NCBI GenBank assembly: GCA_964016885.1
Contig: OZ024742.1
Location: forward strand, 293,942,001 to 294,006,000
Direction of reading: 5' to 3'
Length of the DNA stretch: 64,000 nt
Source: Eledone cirrhosa
Taxonomy: Eukaryota
Below, piece after piece: positions 6,730-63,985 of the stretch. A program made the position numbers and the translations under genes. Every line of letters begins with the position of its first letter. The stretch's first letter is position 1. The notes below the pieces were generated by a model, which was not told where the DNA came from, searched no databases, and saw nothing but the letters and a program-made list of their open reading frames with translations.

Positions 6730-7498
6730 ATATTTGAAAAAAAGGAAAAGAATGACTTCACTTGTAGTGTTAAAAAATTTGATTTAATTTTATAATATTA
6801 TAATATTATGAGTTGGTAGATCTAGTAAGTTCTTCGTTAACTTCGGTGGGACCTTCCCAAACACCCTTATCTTGCGACCTCACCATTTTCTGAGTGTATA
6901 TATGTGTGTGTGTATGTGTGTGTGTACGTGTGTGTGTATGTGTGTGCGTATGTATGCTTTAATTCCTCTGGATCTTCATCATCATCAACACTCATTAACA
7001 CCACACCCCACACCCCAGACACATCCAAATCTCTCTTATATATAGTCACACATCTCAACACAACCTGATCTCAGTTTGACAATCGCCACAGACGAATGCG
7101 AGAAGGTTCTCCAACCCAAGTAAACCAGGAATCTTTAAAATTCTTCCCACGGAAGTTAACAAAGAACTTACTAGATCTACCAATTCATAATATTATAATT
7201 GTTTCTACTTTAGGCACAAGGCCAGCAATTACCCAGTGCATTACTGGTACTTTATCTTATCGACCCCGTAAGGATGAAAGGCAAAGTCAACCTCGGCGGG
7301 ATTTGAACTCAGATCGTAAAGGGACGTAACTATGCTGGAAAGCATGGCGTCCGATCCTCTACCGATACTGCCAATCCACCGTTCATAATATTATAATATT
7401 ATAAAATTAAATCAAATTTTTTAACACTACAAGTGAAGTCATTCTTTTCCTTTTTTTCAAATATACCTAACTGTACCAAGGATCTCACACATTTTCCA
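6730..7498. repeat. Inverted-repeat element flanked by (TA)n, with a nested SINE
   Basis: 6730-6851 is the reverse complement of 7145-7199 plus 7398-7465. Another family member lies at 62124-62345. Confidence 0.8.
7200..7381 (-). mobile_element. tRNA-derived SINE with Meta/MESC-like core and 16-bp TSD
   Basis: Minus strand: A box tggcagtatcgg, B box gagttcaaatcc, core cctttcatccttacggggtcgataagataaagtaccag. TSD ttcataatattataat at 7184-7199 and 7382-7397. Confidence 0.9.
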
Positions 7499-9096: not shown

Positions 9097-9209
9097 TTAG
9101 TGCATGTGTGTGTATCCAATCTTTGCTGACAGAGAGAATGGATGTTAAATGATGATGATGATGATATACACACATAAACATGGTCACCCGGATAGTAAAC
9201 CAAGTCATA

Positions 9210-11215
9210 CAGAATGGGGTTGTCCGAAGGACTGGCGTAGCAGCATCATCATTAACTGTTACAAGGGTAAAGGAGACGCCCTAGATAGGAGTAACTATAG
9301 AGGCATTAAATTAATCGATCAGGTCATGAAGGTCACGGAAAAAGTAATAGTGCAACTAATCAGAGAGAGAATTGATCTAGATGAAATGCAGTTCGGGTTT
9401 GTGTCAGGCAAAAGTACCACAGACGCTCTTTTCATTGTACGACAACTACAGGAGAAGTACCTAGCTAAAAGTAAACCCCTATACTTAGCCTTTGTCGACT
9501 TGGAGAAAGCCTTCGACAGAGTCCCCCGTTCCATTATCTGGTGGGCTCTTAGAAAACTAGGTGTTGACGAATGGCTTGTGAGAGCTATACAAGCCATGTA
9601 TAAAGAAACAATGAGCAAGGTTAGAATTAACAACGAATATAGTGAAGAGTTTAGCGTAAAAGTTGGTGTCCATCAGGGGTCTGTTCTTAGCCCCCTACTA
9701 TTTATTATTGCTCTTCAGGCTATAACAGAGGAGTTCAAGACCGGCTGCCCATGGGAACTCCTATACGCAGATGACTTAACGCTCATAGCTGAATCAATGG
9801 CCGAGCTAGAGAAGAAATTCCAAACATAGAATCAAAAGGCCTTAAAATTAACCTGGCTAAGACTAAAGTTCTAGTTTGTAGGAAAGAAAATAAGGCGCCG
9901 GTCCCTTCCGGGAAATGGCCATGCTCAGTGTGTAGGAAAGGCGTAGGTAGAAACTCCATTTTATGTCCCAAATGCAAAGTATGGGTGCATAAAAGATGTA
10001 GTGGGATCACAGGTAAGCTAACTAAGAACACAGATTTTACATGTGGCCGGTGCTCTGGTGCAATAAGTAGCAGCAAGTGCCCACAGAATACTAGCTCTTT
10101 CAACTGCGAAGCGGGTTCTATAGAAATAGTGGACAGCTTCCGTTACCTGGGTGACAAAATCAGTAGTGGGGGAGGGTGCTCTGAAAGTACAGTAGCTAGA
10201 GTCAGAACTGGATGGAAAAAGTTCAGAGAGCTTATACCACTATTAGCCGCTAAAGGGTTCTCCCTAAAAATGAAAGGCAGGTTGTATGAGGCCTGCATAT
10301 GAACAGCAATGTTGCATGGCAGTGAGACCTGGGCATTGTGTGCAGAGGATATACGCAGACTAGAGAGGAATGAAGCTTGCATACTCCGCTGGATGTGTAA
10401 TAGTAATATACGCGAACGGCAAAGCATAAACGAACTAAGGAAAAAATTAGAAATAAGAGGGATCAGATGTTGTTTACTCGAGAGAAGGCTACGTTGGTAT
10501 GGTCACGTGATGCGCATGAAAGACGACAGCTGTATAGCAAAGTGCAGGGCAATAAAGATAGACGGTAGCCACGGACTAGGCAGACCCAGAAAAACCTGGG
10601 ACGAACTGATAAATTCCGACCTCACACACTTACACCTCTCCAAGACAATGTCACTGGACTGAGATCTTTGGCGGTACTCAGTAATAGAGAAGACCCGCCT
10701 TACCTAAATACAAAGTAAAACCTACTACAGTCAGTAGGCATCTCTAACAAAATACACCCCCGTCCCACCAGCCCCACCCCATCCACACCGCCCCTTTCAA
10801 TGTAAAGTTATGTTGGTGCCACAAAATCCAGGCCAAAACAAATGAGATCGTGTAGGTGTCACGACAAAAAAACACACAGTCCACGCTGTAATGTGACCGT
10901 GTAGGCAACACGGTAAAAACCTCCCAGTCCCACACTGTAAATGTGGTTGGTGTTAGGAAGGGCATCCAGCTGTAGAAAACCCGCCAGACAGTCCACGCTG
11001 TAATGTGGCTGTGTAGGCAACACGGTAAAAACCTCCCAGCCCCACGCTGTAAATGTGGTTGGTGTTAGGAAGGGCATCCAACTGTAGAAAACCCGCGAGA
11101 CAGTCCTATGCGAGCAAGACAACCACTCTTGCCTCAAGTGGGAAAACTCCCGTCCAAACCCATGCAAGCGTGGAAGATGGACGTTAAACGATGATGATGA
11201 TGATGATGATGATGA
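9210..11215 (+). mobile_element. RTE-clade (BovB-like) LINE, 5'-truncated and disrupted
   Basis: RT motifs NYRGIKL, QFGF, FVDLEKAFDRV, GVHQGSVLSP, YADD; Cys-rich insert; RRLRWYGHVMR; GRPRKTW; long 3' UTR and (GAT)n tail. Confidence 0.93.
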
Positions 11216-12047: not shown

Positions 12048-12249
12048 AGAACTTATTTACCTATCAACTTTTGTGATGTGACTTGGTAAGTAAATGTGAG
12101 GAAGAAACAATAAAAACAAAGCTATCAAAAACTGTCAAAACCAATGATGCTTGCCCTAAGTTTCTGGTTGATACTTGGTAGACATTGCATATAAAGCAAT
12201 ATCAAAGGAAAATGTTATAATAATGATAATAATCCAAATATAATAAAGA

Positions 12250-12636
12250 TATAGATATAGAAATAACTTGAATGTGGAAAATGAAAACTGAAACAATACC
12301 TATAATAATAGGTGCTCTGAGACAGATTAAAAAAACACTCTGGGATATGCCAATACACATATACAGAGAGATAGAAATAACTTGAATGGGAAAAGGAAAA
12401 CAGAAACAATACCTGTAATAATAGGTGCTCTAGGAACGATAAGAAAACACACAGACAAATACATAACCAAAACCACAGGACTTACAAATATATACAGCAT
12501 ACAAAAGATAGCACTACTAGACACTGCACACATTACGAAAAGTACTATAATTACAATAGAAACAACATCAGCAAAAATTACACTGCTCATACCCAAGGTG
12601 CACAGAGCTGTGCTTGGTAAAGCAGTAATGATGCGC
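12250..12636 (+). mobile_element. R4/Dong-like LINE 3' end (two tandem partial copies) ending in (TAA)n
   Basis: ETIPVIIGALGTI...IQKIALLDTAHI matches the REL-domain C-terminus; an upstream duplicate encodes KTETIPIIIGAL; followed by (aat)n. Confidence 0.75.
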
Positions 12637-12670
<34 letters not shown>

Positions 12671-12673
<3 letters not shown>

Positions 12674-15600
12674 TTTTCTTTATTAACCACAAGGGTTTAC
12701 ATAAAGTAGACATTAAGGACAGTACAGGACAATACAGGACGGTACAAATGGGCATTTCTGCGTGTAAAAAAACAGAGGTTGAAATAAAATAACAAAGAAA
12801 AATTCCCCAATAGGGGGGAGACTTCCGAGGGACATTTGTGGAGAAAGCCCATTAAAAGACCACAGTGGCCCTGACCACCAGGGCAAGTGCCCTCTCCCAG
12901 TTTTCCACCTTTAATTTACAGACACATACTCAGAGAAGGCCCATTCATTCGGGCCATACTTGCTTCTCTCACCCATCTTTCAACAAAATGCTGGGAAGAG
13001 AGCACTTCCCTCTCTACCCTGATTTTCCTTTTCAAATGAAATTTGAAAAAGTTAATCAGGGCATCACCGAAGAGGTAAGTGCTCGTCTTCAGCCCTTTCA
13101 AACGTGTCCACCATACTATCTCTTTCGCCATGGCCACCAGACAGATAAAAACTGCCTGCCCTTCCCGGCTAAAGGAAGGGGGCGGGGCAATCCTCACGAT
13201 GGACTCAGCTGATAGCTGGATCCGTCCTACACGTGACAGCAGGTGTTCGACATAAACCCACAAGTCAGCAATGCTCGGACACTGGACGAGTGCGTGCAGG
13301 ACGGTTTCGTCGCCCTGCGCGCATCTCGGACATGCCCGGCTGACGGCACCTCCATGCCTGTAGAGTTTATCCCGAACTGGCAAAGCTCCTCGGTAGCACT
13401 GCCAGGCCAGGGATTTCTGGAAGTTGTCCATAGGCCCCGGCCCGAAAGTCCTTCCGAAGAGATTGGCTAGTTGATTTTCGTCGGCGCCTAGAGTTTCTCC
13501 AAGTACGTCGTCGCTCTTCCCCTCCACTAATCCCCTATAGAACGCCAAGGTGGAGTTTCCACCGATCACATTGCCCGATTGGTCGAGGGCTGTGAGCGCC
13601 TGAAGACATTCCAGTCTCCAAGCGCTCCCTCTCGGTCTTCGCTTGACCCAGGACTGCAGCTCCGTCAAGGAGACGAGCTGGGGAAAAACGTGTCTAGCAA
13701 ACGGCGACCACACCTGATCACCGTCGAGGAAGAGGTGGAGATGTCGTAGCCTGAGCGCGTGTCTGCGCATCATCAGCCACGGCATGCCCAGCCCTCCACG
13801 TAGCGGGTGTTGACAGCAGATGGACCGCCTGACCATCGCTCCAGCGCAGTCAGGCGGGGCTTAGGACAAGGTACGACGGTCAGGCGGTAGTAGATGACGG
13901 ATGCGATGTACGCATTCGCCACCTCCGCTCGACCTTTCAGGGATAGCTTCCTCTCGGCCCATTTCTGGGTGAGAGAAGCCACCCTGCTCGTCACCTCGTC
14001 CCAGTTTTTGTCCGTCTGGAGGTCTGGACCGAACCAGACCCCTAGCAATTTAACCGGTCCGTCCGTCCAGCGCCCGACGACGCTGTTGGACGGCATGGAC
14101 CTGCCTCTCCAGGTGCCGAGCTGCAGGCCCACTGACTTTTCCTGGTTGATCATTGCTCCTGTCACCGCTTCGTATTCTCTTAGTGTAGTGCCGATCGCCT
14201 CGATGTGTTTGGCGTTCGACACCACTACGGTGACATCGTCGGCATATGCTGACACGGATCTTCCGCATCCTAGTTCGCGCGGGACCCCCCTCAACGTCTC
14301 CAGTTTGTGGAGTAATGGCTCGAGAGTCAATACGTACAATAGGGACGAGAGGGGACATCCTTGGCGGACCGAGCGCATGATGTTGAACGGTTCCGAAAGG
14401 TGACCGTTCACTCTCACTTCAGAGCAGATATCGCTGTGCATGGCAGCGATCCAGCCTCTGAAGACGGGCCCAAAGTCAGCCGCCCTCAGGACTGCCGCTA
14501 GGTAACGATGGTCGACCCTATCGAAGGCTTTCGATTGATCTAAATTGATCAAAGACCCACCCTTGCCAGGTTCCCTAGCTACCCTCTCTACGATGTATCG
14601 CATGAGGTGGAGGTTGTCGTGGATGGATCTGTCGGGAATGGCGCATGCCTGTGCCTCTCCCACCAGACCACCAACGACAAGCGCCAACCTCTTTGCTAGC
14701 ACCTTGGCCAAAATCTTGAACTCTGTGTTTAGCAGAGTTATGGGCCTAAAATTATCTATGTTATCCCCCTTGTTCGGATCCTTTCTCAGCAGCGCCACCG
14801 CTCCTCGGCTCACAGAGCTGGGAATTCTCCCGTTCTGTTGCCAGTTGCAGTAGACGTCCGCCAAGAGGCCTCCGAACAAGTTTGGCATTTGTACGTAAAG
14901 TTCATAGGGCAGACCATCCAAACCAGGCGATTTACTCCTTGTGCAACTAGTCATTGCATCCCGTACTTCAGCGGTTGTTATCGGCTTTTCGCAACACTCC
15001 GCCTCAGTGGCCGAAAGCCGCGGCAGTCCGTCGAGGTAGACACTAAAGTCCATCCCTCGATCCGGCCCGCCACTGCCCCCCGAACAGTTGAGCGAAGTGT
15101 CGCTGAAAAGCTTCACACATTTGCCCGGGATCGAGTAGCATGCGCCCGTCGTGGTCCACCAAAGACCGGATCGTGGCTTTGGTGCCACGACGCGCCTCCG
15201 CCACTCGGGCCCATTGAACGGCTTTCGTCCCCTCGTGTCTGAGAGCACGCACCCTAGCTCTGACAACGCAGCCTTCGTGCTTTGCATTGAAGAATTGGTC
15301 AAGGGCCAATTTCGCTGCAAGTACGTCGGTCGCGATGCCTTTGCTAAGCACCTCGTCTAATTTTCTAACTAGTTCTCCCTCTGCTCTATTTTTCTCTATT
15401 GCTAAAGTCTTACTAAACCTAATGGACTCTATTCTAATTGCTCTTTTCAGAGCAAACCACCACTTGTTGTTGACGATGGCCCCCGTCAACGCCCGCTTAA
15501 CTAGTTCGCTAATCCGGTCTCTGTAGGCCTTGCGCGATGGTAAGGACGCGTTTAGCTTCCAGTAGCCGGGTCCTCGCCTATGAAGCCTATCTAAGTCAAG

Positions 15601-18508
15601 CACACAGATCACGAATTTGTGGTCCGTGTAGCTGACTATCTTGAATTGTGGACAGCCTATGCTAGACCTATCTATTTCCCTACAAAATACTCTATCTAGA
15701 TATGATCTGGATGACCCTATGCGATTTGTCCAAGTCCACATTGGTACATTCGGGAAATCCATTCGGTACCTGTCAGACAGTTCAAAACGTCTGAGCAGGT
15801 TGGTGAGACTCTTGCACCCTCCTTCCCTATCCACTAATCCCACACAATCCCAGCGTGCATCTAAGATCCCGTTCCAGTCGCCCACTAACACTAAAGAGCG
15901 GGACGTTCCAAGAAAGGTCTCCAGACGCCGGAAGAAATCAGGCCGCCCTGCTCCTGTCGGGGCATAGACGGCCACTAACCTGAAAGCTTGCCCGTCTCCG
16001 CTGGTCACGTCCAGCACCACCAACTTACCTTCTGGGTCCAGGAAGATGGCCCGTATGGCAAGATCCAAACCTCTCCGAAAAAGCACAGCAACTCCTCCCC
16101 CCGATCCCGGACGGCTGGGAGATGCGTACACATCGTAGCCGCCGAAGATCGGTGCGAAAGCCTGTGCTTGGAGATTCTGGTCTCGCTGATGGCCACTACA
16201 TCTATGTTTAGTGACCTGAGGTCGTTGAGCAGGTGGCCCTGCTTCCATGACGACCCCAAGCCACGCGCATTTATGCTGCCTATTCTGAGTGAGGTCATGT
16301 TGAAAAGGAGTGGAAAAGATGGGAAAGACCACTTACCTTACTTCTCGTAGGGGAAGGACGGTTTTTCCATCCTTTTCACTGCTTGTGGCCTCCTCAGGAA
16401 GGATGTCCTTATAAATCCTCCTGGAGAGTGCTTGTCGGAAGTCTCCGATGTCTTTGGGGAATTTTTGTTTTAGTGTCATGTACGTTTTCTGTGTGATGCG
16501 AGTGATTTGTATGTGTGGCGGTGGTGTGAATTTTGGGGTTGTTGTGTAGTCTTTTTCTGTGATGCTGGTGTTGTGTTGGATGTAGTGTAATAATTGCTTG
16601 TTGTTCAAATTTAATGCTGTGTAGTGTGTATCGTTTTGGTTGTTTTGTTTTGTTTGCGTTTGTTGTGGGTTTGTTTCTGTTTCGCATTTTGGTGACTTTT
16701 GTGGTGTAGGTGATGGTGTGTTGGAGTTAATGATGGTGATGGTGTTGGTGTTTGGGTTGATGGGGTTGGTGATGCTGGTGTGGATGGTGGCATATCTGTC
16801 CTAACTTTTTTGTTTCTTAGTTTATTTGTTTCCCTCTGTATTTTGTTTTTGGAGGGGGAAGGAAGAGAATTTTTTTTCTTTTTTGGTTTCTTTTTTTTTC
16901 CGGATATCGTTTCCCACTCCTCGTCGTCACAATCTGTCTCCAGTTGTGATAGGCCGGGGAGTGGTAAATCCTGCACAGCCGTTAGTTTTGGTTGTGGTGT
17001 GGTGGATGGTGTAGGCGCTGGTGCTAGTTCTGAAGCGTTGGGTGGTGGTGGTGTTGGTTTTGCTACTGTTGCTGGGGTTGTTGCTGTTATAGTTGCTTCT
17101 GTTGTTGCTGCTACAGTTGTTGCTGCCATCTCTGCTACTGGTGGTGTTGATGGTTGTGTCACTGGGGTGGGTAGGAGAGGTGGCCTCAACCTTTTAGCCT
17201 GAGGGCAGAAAACCCTTAGGTGGGTTCCTTCACCACAAACGACACACCTAGGTCTTCTGCCCTCGACAATTACCGTGAGGTGGCTGCCGTCAGTGAGGTC
17301 TATTACCTCTGGGATCTCCTCAATGCTTTTTTGGTCCGCTTGGATCAGGAGCTCCATCCCAGATCCGGACCAGTTTTCCTGCTTTTCTTTTGCTATTGCT
17401 ATTATTTTCGTGTTGGCTTCGATGCCGGCGAGGACAACCGCTATTAGCCAGGGAATTTCGATGGCCGGTGGAACGTGGGTCACCCTGATCTTTACGAGTC
17501 TCTGGCCACAATAGCTTGGGACGAGTGTGAAGTCGTCACTTTTTAATGGGGCCATGGAGTGTTCTCTAGCCTCCTCTGGTGTTTCAAAGAACACATCCAC
17601 GGTTCCATACTTTTGCCCACGTCTGATGTGGGTTTTTCTTGCCCACACATGTCCCAAAGCTTTTTGGATTTGGGACTCGGATGCCCGTTCCACTCGGCGC
17701 GATTTTACATTTATTGTTCTATACGACACGGTGCATAGGCGCCGATGCTCCATTTTATTAGGTGGGGGGGAGGCTGACCCTGTACCCATCTTTCTTTACC
17801 ATTTGTTTGGCATTTTATAAATCCTCTTGAGTTACCGTGAATGCTTCGAATTGTTTTGCTACTATGGCGAAACTGAGGGTCGGTTTTATAATGTCATTGT
17901 TGTTGTTGTTGCTATCGTTATTTGTGTTAATATTAATTTTAGTTTCAGTTGTGGTGGTGGTGACGTCAGTCGTCTTTGGTGCGGAAGAGTCCATTTTGCT
18001 TGATTTCATTTCGATATCACGAGTTAATTTATTTTTTTCTTCTTTTGTTTCTGTTGTCGCGGTGGTGGTGGGGGTGGTGGTTGTCGCGGTGGTGGTGGTG
18101 GTGGTGGAGGCTTTAACACCTGCAGTCATTGGTAATGGCGGGAAATGAATGTCTGCTTGAGACAAATTTAAAATATTGCTACTGCTTATATTTTTTTTTG
18201 TGTTGGCAAACGTAGTAACATTTACAATGGTGGTGTCGGTGTGAGGTGTTATTTTGTGAGGAAGGCTTTCAGCTGCTTCGTGCAGAGGGGAATTAGCCAT
18301 TTTTTTTCAAAGAAATTTTTGGATAATAATAAAAGTTAAAATTTTGGGCACAAGGCCCCAATCTTTTTGGGTGTCCTTTTCGGAAAACAATGTATGTGTG
18401 CTTATAAACAGTTAACAATAAAATTTTCCATAAATGGCAATTTTTAACAAACGGAAATAACAAACCTTTGCGGAGCTCACGATGATACGATTTACTACGT
18501 AGGTCGCC
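12671..18508 (-). mobile_element. Near full-length Tx1-clade (L1-like) LINE, frameshifted
   Basis: ORF1 pieces 18300-16333 with CCHC knuckle CVVCGEGTHLRVFC. ORF2 pieces 16298-12916: APE (SINARGL, AISETR, LVGDWN, YLDR, TDH), RT (KSPGLDG, RPITLLN, DQSKAFDRV, VRQGCPLS, AYADD) and C-terminal CPRC..ETVLH..C. AATAAA near the 3' end; (TAA)n on both sides. Confidence 0.93.
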
Positions 18509-18540
<32 letters not shown>

Positions 18541-18542
<2 letters not shown>

Positions 18543-19317
18543 CTTTCTTTATTAACCACAAGTATTTACACAAAGTGGACATTAAGGACAGTACAGGACA
18601 ATACAGGACGGTACAAATGGGCATTTCTGCATGTAAAAAAACAAAAAACAGAGGATGTAATAAAAGAACAATGAAAAATTCCCCATCGTGGAGAAAGCCC
18701 ATTAAAAAAAAGCCACGGTGACCCTGACCACCAGGGCAAGTGTCCTCTCCCAGTTTTCCACCTTCAATTTACGGGCATATACTCAGAGTAGGTCCACTCA
18801 CTCGGGCCATTCTTGCCTCTCTCACCCATCTTTCAACAAAAAGCTGGGAAGAGAGCACTTCCCTCTCTACCCTGATTTTCCTTATCAAATGAAATTAGAA
18901 AAAGTTAATCAGGGCATCACAGAAGAGGTAAGTGCTCGTCTTCAGCCCTTTCAAACGTGTCCACCATACTATCTCTTTCGCCATGGCCACCAGACAGATA
19001 AAAACTGCCTGCCCTTCCCGGCTAAAGGAAGAGGGCGGGGCAATCCTCACGATGGTCTCGGCTGATAGTCGGATCCGTTGTCCATGCAGGTGTTCGACAT
19101 AAACCCACAAGTCAGCAATGCTCGGACACTGGACGAGTGCATGCAGGATGGTTTCGTCGCCCTGCGTGCATCTCGGACATGCCCGGCTGACGGCACCTCC
19201 ATACCTGTAGAGTTTATCCTGAACTGGCAAAGCTCCTCGGTAGCACTGCCAGGCCAGGGATTTCTGGAAGTTGTCCATGGGCCCCGGCCCGAAAGTTCTT
19301 CCGAAGAGATTGGCTAG
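18541..19317 (-). mobile_element. 5'-truncated second Tx1 copy
   Basis: High identity to 12671-13470 (ORF 18895-19278 matches the ORF2 C-terminus); bounded by (TAA)n. Confidence 0.93.
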
Positions 19318-19335
19318 TAATAATAATAATAATAA

Positions 19336-20246
19336 ATGATATATGTATGCAATTTGGTATTAATAAGTGTGGAATCCTAGTGATGAAGAGGGGTAAATTG
19401 ATCAGAAGCAACGGAATCCAGGTACCAACATGTGAGATGATAAAGGAAATTGACACTGAAGAGGGATAGAAATATTTAGGTGTTCTGGAGACAGATGACA
19501 TCAAGAACAAAAAAAATGAAGGAATTGATAAGATCTGAATACATAAGGAGAGTAAGAAACATACTAAAATCACATCTAAATAGTAGGAATGTCATAAGTG
19601 CAGTAAATTCCCGAGCTGTGTCTATTATTAGGTACAGTGCGGGAATTCTGAAACGGAATGTTGCTGAACAAAAAGAAATGGATAGGAAGACTAGGAAGCT
19701 ATTGACTATCTACAACATGTTCCACAAGAGGAGTGATGTCGATAGACTCTACTTAAGGAGATCTGAAGGTGGAAGAGGTCTTATCAGCATAGAGGACTGT
19801 GTTCAGATGGAGAAAAACAACCTGCACAAATACATGACTGACAGAAGGGAGCTAATGCTCAGAATTGTACTGAAGGAGAAGACAATAGACTAGGGGATGT
19901 CCAAGGAGGAAATAACAAGGAGGAAGAGCAACCTTCATGAAAAATCCCTTTATAGTACGTTCTTTGAGAAAACTGAATTTAGAGATCCACAGACATGGAA
20001 CTGGTTAAAAAGAGGAGACCTTAAAAGGGCTACAGAAGGAATGCTAATGGATGCACAAGAGCAGGCCCTCAGAACAAAGTGGGTGAAACACCATATTTAC
20101 AAGGAGGAGGCTAGCCCACTGTGTAGGATCTGTGGAGAGAGGAGACTGTGGCTCACATTGTATCCGAGTGTAAACACCTAGCCCAGACTCACTATAAAGG
20201 CTGGAGACATGATGTGATGGGCAGGGTGATCCACTGGCACCTATGC

Positions 20247-20247
<1 letters not shown>
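19336..20247 (+). mobile_element. R4/Dong-like LINE internal fragment
   Basis: KYLGVLE, SEYIRRVRNILKSHLNSRN, MDRKTRKLL, DRLYLRRSEGGRGL, AQEQALRT, CRICG..ETVAHIVSEC, RHDVMGRVIHWHLC; (TAA)n on both sides. Confidence 0.88.
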
Positions 20248-20317
<70 letters not shown>

Positions 20318-20419
20318 GGATTTATTTATTAATTTATTTAATAGTAATAATAATAATTATTATTATTATTATTATACTCACTGAGAATTCAACTGAGAAT
20401 GTAAAAAGATGGACTAAAC

Positions 20420-20999: not shown

Positions 21000-21535
21000 G
21001 TATCATCATCACCATTGAACGTCCATTTTCCATGCTAGCATGGGTTAGATGAGTTGTCCAAATATGAGCCAAGCCAGAACAGATGACCGTCTCCATATAT
21101 GTATCATCATCATCATCATCATCATTTTACGTCCGCTTTTCCCTGCTTGCAAGGGTGGGATGGTAACTGATTCTGGCTTGATTTCTACAGCTGGATGCCC
21201 TTCCTAATACCAACCTCATTTAAAGTGAGTGCTTTTTTTCCGTGAGTGCATTTACAGTGAGTGCTTTTTTCCTGGGTGCTTTTTTTCCGTGGTGCCTACA
21301 CGTCCACTTTACAGTGAGTGCTGGGGGCTTTTTTGCCGTGGCACCTCCACGACCACTTTGCAGTGGAATGATATGGACCCCAGTCTTATCATCTCATTTC
21401 TACAGCTGAGTAAACTGGAGCAATGTGAAATAAAGTGTCTTGCTCAAGGAAATAATACATCACCCGGTCTGAGAATTAAACTCACAACCTTTCGATTGCA
21501 AGGCCAATGCTCTAACCACGAAGCCATGTACCTCC
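21000..21535 (-). mobile_element. Cluster of SINE fragments (RTE-tailed and tRNA-headed)
   Basis: (cat)n tails, ctacagctggatgcccttcctaa motif, and a degenerate tRNA head with ttgagcaagacactt on the minus strand. Confidence 0.65.
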
Positions 21536-33424: not shown

Positions 33425-33780
33425 TCATCATCATCATCATCATCACCGTTTTACGTCCGTTCTTCCATGCTAGCATGGGTTAGATGGGTTGTCCTGTTGT
33501 GGGCAGTGTCTGGTCGGCTGACCATGCCTTGCTCATACAGGAACTGATTTTGGCTTGATTTCTACAGCTGGATGCCCTTCCTAACACCAACCTCATTTAC
33601 AGTGAGTGCTGGGTGCTTTTTTCCGTGGCGCCTACACGTCCACTTTACAGTGTGGGCTGGGTGCTTTTTTGCCGTGGCACCTCCACGACCACTTTGCAGT
33701 GGGAGGGTGTGGGGGCATATTGTCTATATGCTTCAGCTTGTACCCATGGGAGGTCGGGTACTCTGTATTACTGCGTGACG
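33425..33780 (-). mobile_element. RTE-tailed SINE
   Basis: (cat)n tail, ttccatgctagcatggg, ctacagctggatgcccttcctaacacc and internal ~43-bp repeats. Confidence 0.75.
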
Positions 33781-44932: not shown

Positions 44933-45116
44933 TGTTTCTACTTTAGGCACAAGGCCAGCAATTACCCAGTGCATTACTGGCACTTTATTTTATCGACCCC
45001 GTAAGGATGAAAGGCAAAGTCAACCTCGGCGGGATTTGAACTCAGATCGTAAAGGGACGTAACTATGCTGGAAAGCATGGCGTCCGACACTCTACCGATA
45101 CTGCCAATCCACCGCC
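44933..45116 (-). mobile_element. Full-length Meta-core tRNA SINE with TSD
   Basis: Near-identical to 7200-7381; TSD ctttcattacaaataat on both sides. A variant copy follows at ~45137-45296. Confidence 0.9.
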
Positions 45117-45320
45117 CTTTCATTACAAATAATGGCTTCTGATTTAGGCACGAGGACAATAATTTGGGGGAAGAGGAAAGTCGATTAAATCGACCCCAGT
45201 GGATTACTGGTACTTTATTTTATCGACCCCCGTAAGGATGAATATCAAAACTAACCTCGGCAAGATTTGAACTCAGAATGTAAAGGGACGTAACTATATG
45301 CCGATATATATATATATATA

Positions 45321-63719: not shown

Positions 63720-63985
63720 TCCATTCATCATCTTCCTAGAGATGGTGACATGAATGGACCTATAATTTTTATCTAAATTTTTTTCCTATTTCCCACTGCC
63801 AGTCTTCTCAATCTTTCTATTACTTCTTAAATTTCTCATTCTATTTTCTGATGAAGAACTAGTGTCTGAAACGTTCATCCTTACGGGGGTCGATAAAATA
63901 AAGTACCAGTAATGTACTGAGTAATTGATGGCCTTGTGCCAAAAGTAGAAACAATTATTTTCCTACTATATCAAGCATAAAACTA
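63720..63985 (+). mobile_element. Second copy of the hammerhead-containing repeat, interrupted by a Meta-core SINE 3' fragment (63876-63958)
   Basis: tctcattctattttCTGATGAagaactagtgtctGAAACGTT|catccttacgggggtcgataaaataaagtaccag...acaattat|tttcctactatatcaagc. Confidence 0.8.

Follow-up and report, generated by a model that had tools for sequence, protein, structure and literature searches.

A 64,000-nt stretch of the Eledone cirrhosa genome (assembly GCA_964016885.1, contig OZ024742.1, positions 293,942,001 to 294,006,000 of the forward strand; below, the window) contains an array of ∼8 kb, positions 12215-20374, in which pieces of long interspersed nuclear elements (LINEs) alternate with TAA tracts. 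The array is best explained as a stack of insertions: a young Tx1-clade LINE with an endonuclease of apurinic/apyrimidinic (APE) type entered (ATT)n, and Dong-like LINEs entered on the other strand. The ATT tracts in which copies of this Tx1 are found predate the insertions, and copies come to be flanked by the tract at both ends. We hold with high confidence that ATT tracts as such are the target.

An earlier note, made from the window sequence, had proposed a TAA-specific Tx1 family and named non-TAA 5′ flanks at most other copies as the observation that would speak against it. We saw the opposite. Among 1,687 exact genomic occurrences of a 21-mer from the 5′-end of subfamily A, to which the full-length window copy belongs, 1,570 (93%) follow ATTATTATT, i.e. 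(ATT)3, in register; a base other than T precedes 10. In a sample of 82 copies taken in positional order from the start of one contig (C1), at least three exact ATT units precede 50 of the 52 full-length copies of subfamilies A and B (median 12 units). The exceptions that were fetched, those 10 and five from the C1 listing, all (15/15) have a long ATT tract with one changed base. In PMC4494074 a target-sequence preference is counted from over 20% of flanks, a share that is surpassed here.

The 5′-truncated copies also favor the repeat. Of 28 rows we excluded L079 and L081, which are rearranged internally, L096, a full-length copy that carries a deletion, and a second row each for L066 and L107 (the two L107 junctions being identical); with two later additions 25 independent junctions remained. 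At least three ATT units were found within 6 nt of the truncated 5′-end in 11 of these and within 10 nt in 14. The background of ATTATTATT in 200 kb of arbitrary stretches was 103 per 400,000 strand positions, and the chance of meeting it in any register within 6 nt is ∼0.5%; truncated 5′-ends are enriched roughly 100-fold. Furthermore, some insertions carry an interruption of the tract in both flanks, with duplications of 13, 16 and 11 nt for truncated and of 34 and 49 nt for full-length copies, thus the repeat was a target and not only a tail. In several copies a tail is absent, and the ATT passes directly into CTT, ACT or a minisatellite. A scan for paralogous empty sites returned mostly other Tx1/Dong junctions; at least one empty site, L168 (compared with the filled L240), is informative and holds an imperfect 21-nt ATT tract. 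The L009/L226 pair, considered as a tract made inside Dong, was rejected, the locus being rearranged.

As a separate observation, (TTC)n is present at one flank in 4 of ∼100 Tx1 copies, and at some Tx1 and Dong junctions (TTC)n directly adjoins (ATT)n (L058, L061, L085, L279, L047, L063); a GAA-tailed or GAA-targeting element may share these junction sites.

The stacks are polarized. Out of 160 flanks of 80 Tx1 copies, 33 are within 130 nt of Dong-like family 1, and 32 of these 33 neighbors face the opposite way; where the neighbor is another Tx1, the strands agree in every one of the 33 counts (17 made at the 5′ and 16 at the 3′ flank, with some junctions counted from both sides). The fixed orientation suggested by the two window copies, both on the minus strand, is also seen among these 80 copies. 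Dong-like pieces have a reverse transcriptase (RT) similar to that of R2 (the best match in PDB, E 3e-23) together with CCHC, RHD and PD..D..K motifs; 3′-ends and several truncated 5′-ends of these families abut TAA. No sequence named Dong was among the 120 matches listed, the label resting on motifs and target. As each insertion leaves a tract on both sides, fresh targets arise for both clades, and Tx1 and Dong renew each other's target. At L017, L108 and L295 a 5′-truncated Dong-like copy adjoins the 5′-end of a Tx1 in head-to-head arrangement, without an intervening repeat; here a deletion at or after insertion is possible.

In the window, all six runs of four or more TAA or TTA units lie inside the array (Table 1). 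The order of the pieces, their strands and the TAA-delimited junctions, including the one at the truncated 5′-end at 19317, are as the earlier note gave them, with three corrections. The ‘full’ Tx1 is indeed full-length, 90-98% identical to 33 other full-length A copies, but dead: in comparison with an intact copy, its open reading frame 2 (ORF2) is frameshifted by a single base at two places, near 16169 and near 15077, and has lost 37 nt near 13838. Both pieces read as Dong-like are so, but they represent two separate families, the first piece being a 3′-end and the second an internal fragment; the first has no blastn match to loci holding the second family, and protein identity at the C-terminus is 30-35%. 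The first piece (family 2), the true 3′-end of its element, has an internal tandem duplication (12253-12338 / 12367-12450) and 90-92% identity to its best other copies. The second (family 1), 94-95% identical to its best copies, is without ∼520 nt of 3′-end including the PD-(D/E)xK region; since most family 1 copies continue for these ∼520 nt to their own 3′-end, the TAA tract after 20246 is not a native tail. Identities of the array pieces to relatives are about 90%, 89%, 95% and 97%; such differing ages would fit stepwise growth.

Table 1. Parts of the LINE array, and copies of a short interspersed nuclear element (SINE), in the window
Feature	Position	Strand	Remarks
Degenerate (TAA)n	12215..12232	+	At truncated 5′-end of first Dong-like piece; from sequence
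R4/Dong-like family 2, 3′-end	12233..12636	+	C-terminal IPxIIGALG...QKIALL motif, 3′ untranslated region (UTR)
(AAT)12 tract	12637..12672		Tail of Dong-like family 2 and target at Tx1 3′ junction
Full-length Tx1-clade element, subfamily A, 5,836 nt	12673..18508	-	APE, RT, zf-RVT matches
Tx1 3′ terminus	12673..12705	-	Hairpin ACC-CTTGT-GGT, then AATAAA and GAAAAC
Tx1 ORF2 (APE endonuclease, RT, zf-RVT)	12916..16298	-	Broken; 1,139 aa in intact copies
Tx1 ORF1 region, broken into pieces	16333..18306	-	CCHC zinc knuckle
(AAT)11 tract	18509..18541		Between 5′-end of full copy and 3′-end of truncated copy
5′-truncated Tx1 copy, 776 nt	18542..19317	-	89% to full copy; older
(TAA)6	19318..19335		Common to two truncated 5′-ends, Tx1 (-) and Dong-like (+)
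R4/Dong-like family 1, internal fragment	19336..20246	+	End of RT to CCHC and RHD
(AAT)23.7 (20247-20317), AT-rich spacer, inverted (TAA)4(TTA)6 (20345-20374)	20247..20374		From sequence
SINE copy	∼7201-7381	-	Tx1-type hairpin; duplications of SINE copies 16-17 nt, starting ATTAT
SINE copy	44934-45117	-	As above
SINE copy, 3′-end	63933-63952	+	As above

The Tx1 family is large: besides the 1,687 5′-ends, the genome contains 6,976 exact 23-mers of its 3′ UTR (3′-end copies were collected by sequence patterns), and many sites match a 209-nt 5′ query at 100%. Among the 82 sampled copies we distinguished three 5′ types, A, B and C. Subfamily B joins A near nt 2129; the 5′ halves differ, and ORF1 is 44% identical. 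We observed that subfamilies have ORF2 or the 3′-end in common while 5′ UTR and ORF1 are different (L052 compared with window 12673-18508; L044, L091), and that mosaic copies occur, L044 being C-like at the 5′- and A-like at the 3′-end. An ORF2 open over 1,108-1,204 codons from stop to stop was present in at least five A and at least eight B copies, thus the family is likely active or was so very recently.

The intact copy L046 has matches to PF03372, PF00078 and PF13966, that is, an N-terminal APE domain, RT and a C-terminal zinc finger. Catalytic APE residues, aligned to Tx1L, are present in the family. ORF2 scores 325 bits against Tx1L versus 181 bits against human L1 ORF2p, and in a quick 58-row tree (L1 left out) the RT clusters with Tx1L and with U2-flanked elements and lies apart from RTE and Dong. 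The family, P0001 and an Argonauta protein make up a separate clade (99 in the Shimodaira-Hasegawa-like approximate likelihood ratio test), sister to proteins at ∼40%; the nearest named protein (69%) is from Argonauta hians. ORF1 had no Pfam match above the cut-off. Tx1-clade ORF1 carries a gag-like zinc knuckle, and we found one, C-x2-C-x4-H-x4-C, in ORF1 of A, B, C and of the sister types D2 and E (see below). Contigs from four other organisms match the element over most of its length, with 85-99% identity. Metagenomes yielded distant relatives, mostly at 23-34% identity; of the 30 that we inspected, not one is bounded by an ATT tract. In 20 scanned metagenome loci with a Tx1-type ORF2, we saw U2 small nuclear RNA (snRNA) following in two and U1 in one (L175, L178, L195); the U1 neighbor, 1.7 kb after the ORF match, may be there by chance.

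One 3′-end pattern retrieved 9,724 related 3′-ends. Some of these sister families, the D types, are 70-82% identical to A and end in ATT; others, the E types, end in TATC. Among 32 copies found by the E-type 3′-end (L326-L357 on contig C1), 23 had TATCT within 12 nt, 17 had at least two TATC units and 11 at least three, and three ATT units were seen in none of the 32; the background of TATCTATC was 60 per 400,000 strand positions. Six of eight long E copies share a 5′ start after (TATC)n, and several truncated ones also follow (TATC)n. Three copies (L353, L356, L329) have an open ORF2 of 1,167-1,172 codons, 67-68% identical to that of A. The E type is looser in target than A. An 18-row tree nests E among the ATT families as sister of D1 (95/97); monophyly of the ATT group, which was named after the first tree had been seen, and with recombination between families evident, was rejected by the approximately unbiased test (p-AU 0.014). 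With E nested in this way, ATT is likely the older target and the E lineage likely switched to (TATC)n. As a side observation, the E-type copies L351-L353, one with intact ORF2, lie in a ∼50-nt minisatellite containing CTATC.

The CTTGT loop in the hairpin at the 3′ terminus of the window Tx1 is common to the sister LINEs, the 3′-ends of the LINEs as a whole reading ACC-CTTGT-GGT or GCC-CTTGT-GGC, and to a SINE of ∼190 nt ending in GGC-CTTGT-GCC. This SINE has a box that we take to be a tRNA-type B box. The first three stem pairs are kept in 96-98% of 167 LINE and 118 SINE ends; the copies being related, the compensatory stems amount to three stem versions and not to 285 events. The genome contains 146,975 exact SINE 3′-ends. 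Duplications were found at 24 of the first 30 copies; 23 of the 24 are 11-20 nt long, all start with ATTA and 16 are preceded by C. At junctions SINE and Tx1 have the same orientation. To judge from these shared sequence features, the SINE is likely moved by the Tx1 machinery. Yet only 8,918 of the 146,975 SINE ends (6.1%) run into (ATT)4AT, in comparison with 63 of 80 LINE ends (79%); in the background, tracts start at 57 of 1,049 ATTAT sites and 2 of 165 CATTAT sites. If the SINE uses Tx1 ORF2p, then this protein by itself recognizes about five bases, and the tract preference of the LINE needs something in cis. The same contrast bears on the convergence of an APE-type element on Dong's target that the earlier note had put forward. 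The shared repeat, used on opposite strands, is confirmed; convergence is shown only in part, because the insertion site of the likely partner SINE is a 5-nt motif and its preference for tracts is slight. We infer that Tx1 and Dong, with unrelated endonucleases, converged on the TAA repeat.

We consider it fairly probable, from comparison of copies, that target choice has two layers, the endonuclease nicking a short motif and RNA-DNA pairing selecting long tracts. The first nick would fall on the AAT strand, after ...ATAAT and opposite the start of (C/T)ATTAT, with a default duplication of 11-20 nt, as the duplications of SINE and truncated copies suggest. ORF2p would bind the 3′ hairpin with its CUUGU loop and prime inside a putative read-through (AUU)n; this is suggested by the lack of a poly(A) tail at all 82 sampled 3′ junctions (0/82), though AATAAA is present 6 nt before the junction. 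Full-length RNA would start in or at the upstream tract, so that the end of the cDNA could anneal to (ATT)n; such annealing would produce the in-register ATT/G junction, duplications up to 49 nt and the presence in tracts of near 100% of full-length versus ∼50% of truncated copies. The ATT repeats on the element's own RNA would thus pair with the target and steer insertion to long tracts, and the sister lineage would have switched its repeat to (TATC)n. We are more reserved about the joint proposition (a five-base endonuclease with own-RNA repeats, convergence on Dong's repeat, a TATC sister and a ∼147,000-copy SINE without the RNA layer), to which we give somewhat less than an even chance.

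Some observations weigh against the two-layer model. An ATT tract is missing from the 5′ junction in 11 of the 25 truncated copies: (TTC)n is found there in two, (ACT)n, reversed (TAA)n and a minisatellite in one each, Dong follows directly in two, and four have no repeat. The long duplications rest on two copies, one of which (L052) is in a tandem pair. The SINE is ∼fivefold enriched in tracts relative to CATTAT sites, a preference that is weak but not nil. Moreover, instead of A or B, a relative that is older and less strict could move the SINE: there are the 9,724 further 3′-ends of related families, several of whose ATT-type ends have short tracts.

A rather unlikely alternative is that a long (AAT)n tract is required by the protein itself, endonuclease plus remainder of ORF2p, the SINE being moved by a different, relaxed member of the clade. 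Truncated copies without the 5′ leader are still in long tracts (6-20 units in several), and SART1Bm, which needs at least three telomeric units, offers a precedent (PMC7265360). The endonuclease hairpin loop, too, sorts with target, being NRIGS in the ATT families (A, B, C, D1) and NRSGT, NRSGQ or NISGT in the TATC families; however, although the loop influences which targets L1 chooses, specificity does not pass with a grafted loop in modular fashion (PMC1950540). A relative with a SINE-like short target was not found among 30+40 related copies, and truncated A and B copies outside tracts have SINE-like sites with duplications of 11-16 nt. Nor would a demand of the enzyme predict the difference in tract occupancy between full-length and truncated copies.

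It is improbable that the enzyme sees only ATTAT and has no true liking for microsatellites, the long tracts being 5′ leader and 3′ tail copied from RNA and lengthened by slippage. One could cite full-length copies with a long tract at the 5′ and none at the 3′ junction (L038, L085, L235), the long 3′ tract of nearly all truncated copies even when the 5′ flank has none, and the median of 12 + 14.5 units per filled site, larger than the 21-nt tract of one empty paralog. On the other hand, tracts brought by the element leave unexplained why 11-14 of 25 truncated 5′-ends abut ATT, why interruptions are duplicated and why Dong ends (33 of 160 flanks) and ends of other Tx1 copies (33 junction counts) are neighbors far more often than at random ATTAT sites. 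Finally, that the repeat is just a tail, the 5′ ATT coming from tandem duplication of whole units or from survival in harmless places, is very improbable and for most copies refuted by the 5′-end counts, for although a few units were duplicated as blocks (L066, L107) and in 17 of 80 cases the 5′ flank is another Tx1's tail, most 5′ flanks differ in sequence beyond the tract, ATT adjoins each of three distinct 5′-ends as well as many distinct truncation points, and several copies have no tail.

Elsewhere in the window, positions 9149-10662 (+) contain another LINE, which we take to be RTE-like, with RT and, directly after it, a PHD-like zinc finger; it starts at an (ATG)n run. Tandem units of 112 nt at 10876-11215 are followed by a (GAT)9 run; the opposite strand carries related units at 21103-21365 and 33425-33701, preceded by (ATC)n runs.

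If the two-layer model is true, the sister pair is a ready-made swap experiment for a change of LINE target specificity: families with intact ORF2, 68% identity and different repeats, along with a SINE, make the choice between enzyme and RNA testable by swaps of domains and RNA ends. The SINE, which likely uses the Tx1 protein, shows the behavior of the protein without the LINE's own RNA; also, a likely partner can be named for one of the most abundant SINEs of the genome. Polarized LINE stacks are explained without selection, and the Tx1 and Dong clades together would count among the main origins of the genome's long TAA tracts and stacked LINEs.

Microsatellite targeting by Tx1 is already known; ATT and TATC appear to be new targets for the clade. 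No ATT- or TATC-targeting Tx1 was found in the literature searched, which left out Repbase, subscription journals and the target-listing supplements of PMC4494074; the portions of PMC9115989, PMC4824008 and PMC8869645 that were covered contain nothing on such elements. TAA is listed as a target for Dong only in the covered portions of PMC4494074 and PMC3812793. In Octopus vulgaris both Dong-R4 and L1-Tx1 were recently active (PMC13282606, Table 1), with 13 active L1-Tx1 families, for which the portion covered mentions no targets (PMC13282606). How APE-type LINEs gain and change microsatellite targets is poorly understood (PMC3812793).

The closest known systems are Kibi and Koshi of teleosts, specific for (TC)n and (TTC)n, and the crocodilian (TTCC)n/(TTTC)n families (PMC4494074, PMC3812793), which are likewise APE-type, Tx1-clade and microsatellite-specific. 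Their targets are pyrimidine runs, whereas here the target is A/T-rich (ATT)n or (TATC)n and the host is a cephalopod. No sequence named Kibi or Koshi was among the 120 matches listed, and our family differs from both in its target, with (ATT)n in place of (TC)n or (TTC)n. Tx1L of Xenopus and U2-targeting Keno-like elements have the same domain order as the window Tx1 at an identity of only 27-30%; the flanks here are ATT and not U2 snRNA, and the U2-flanked relatives L175 and L178 belong to the same broad group but to another branch. The co-resident Dong-like families match Dong, DongAg and DongBg (R4 clade, restriction-like endonuclease, TAA target) by motifs and TAA; compared with the window Tx1, Dong has an unrelated endonuclease and uses the other strand. 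Its classification varies: Dong is filed as APE-type in PMC3812793 and as Dong-R4 in PMC13282606, R4 being restriction-like in PMC4640811. SART and TRAS of Bombyx likewise are two LINE families that occupy one tandem repeat in opposite orientations (PMC7265360); however, both are APE-type R1-clade elements in telomeric repeats, whereas here an APE-type and a restriction-like element share a dispersed microsatellite.

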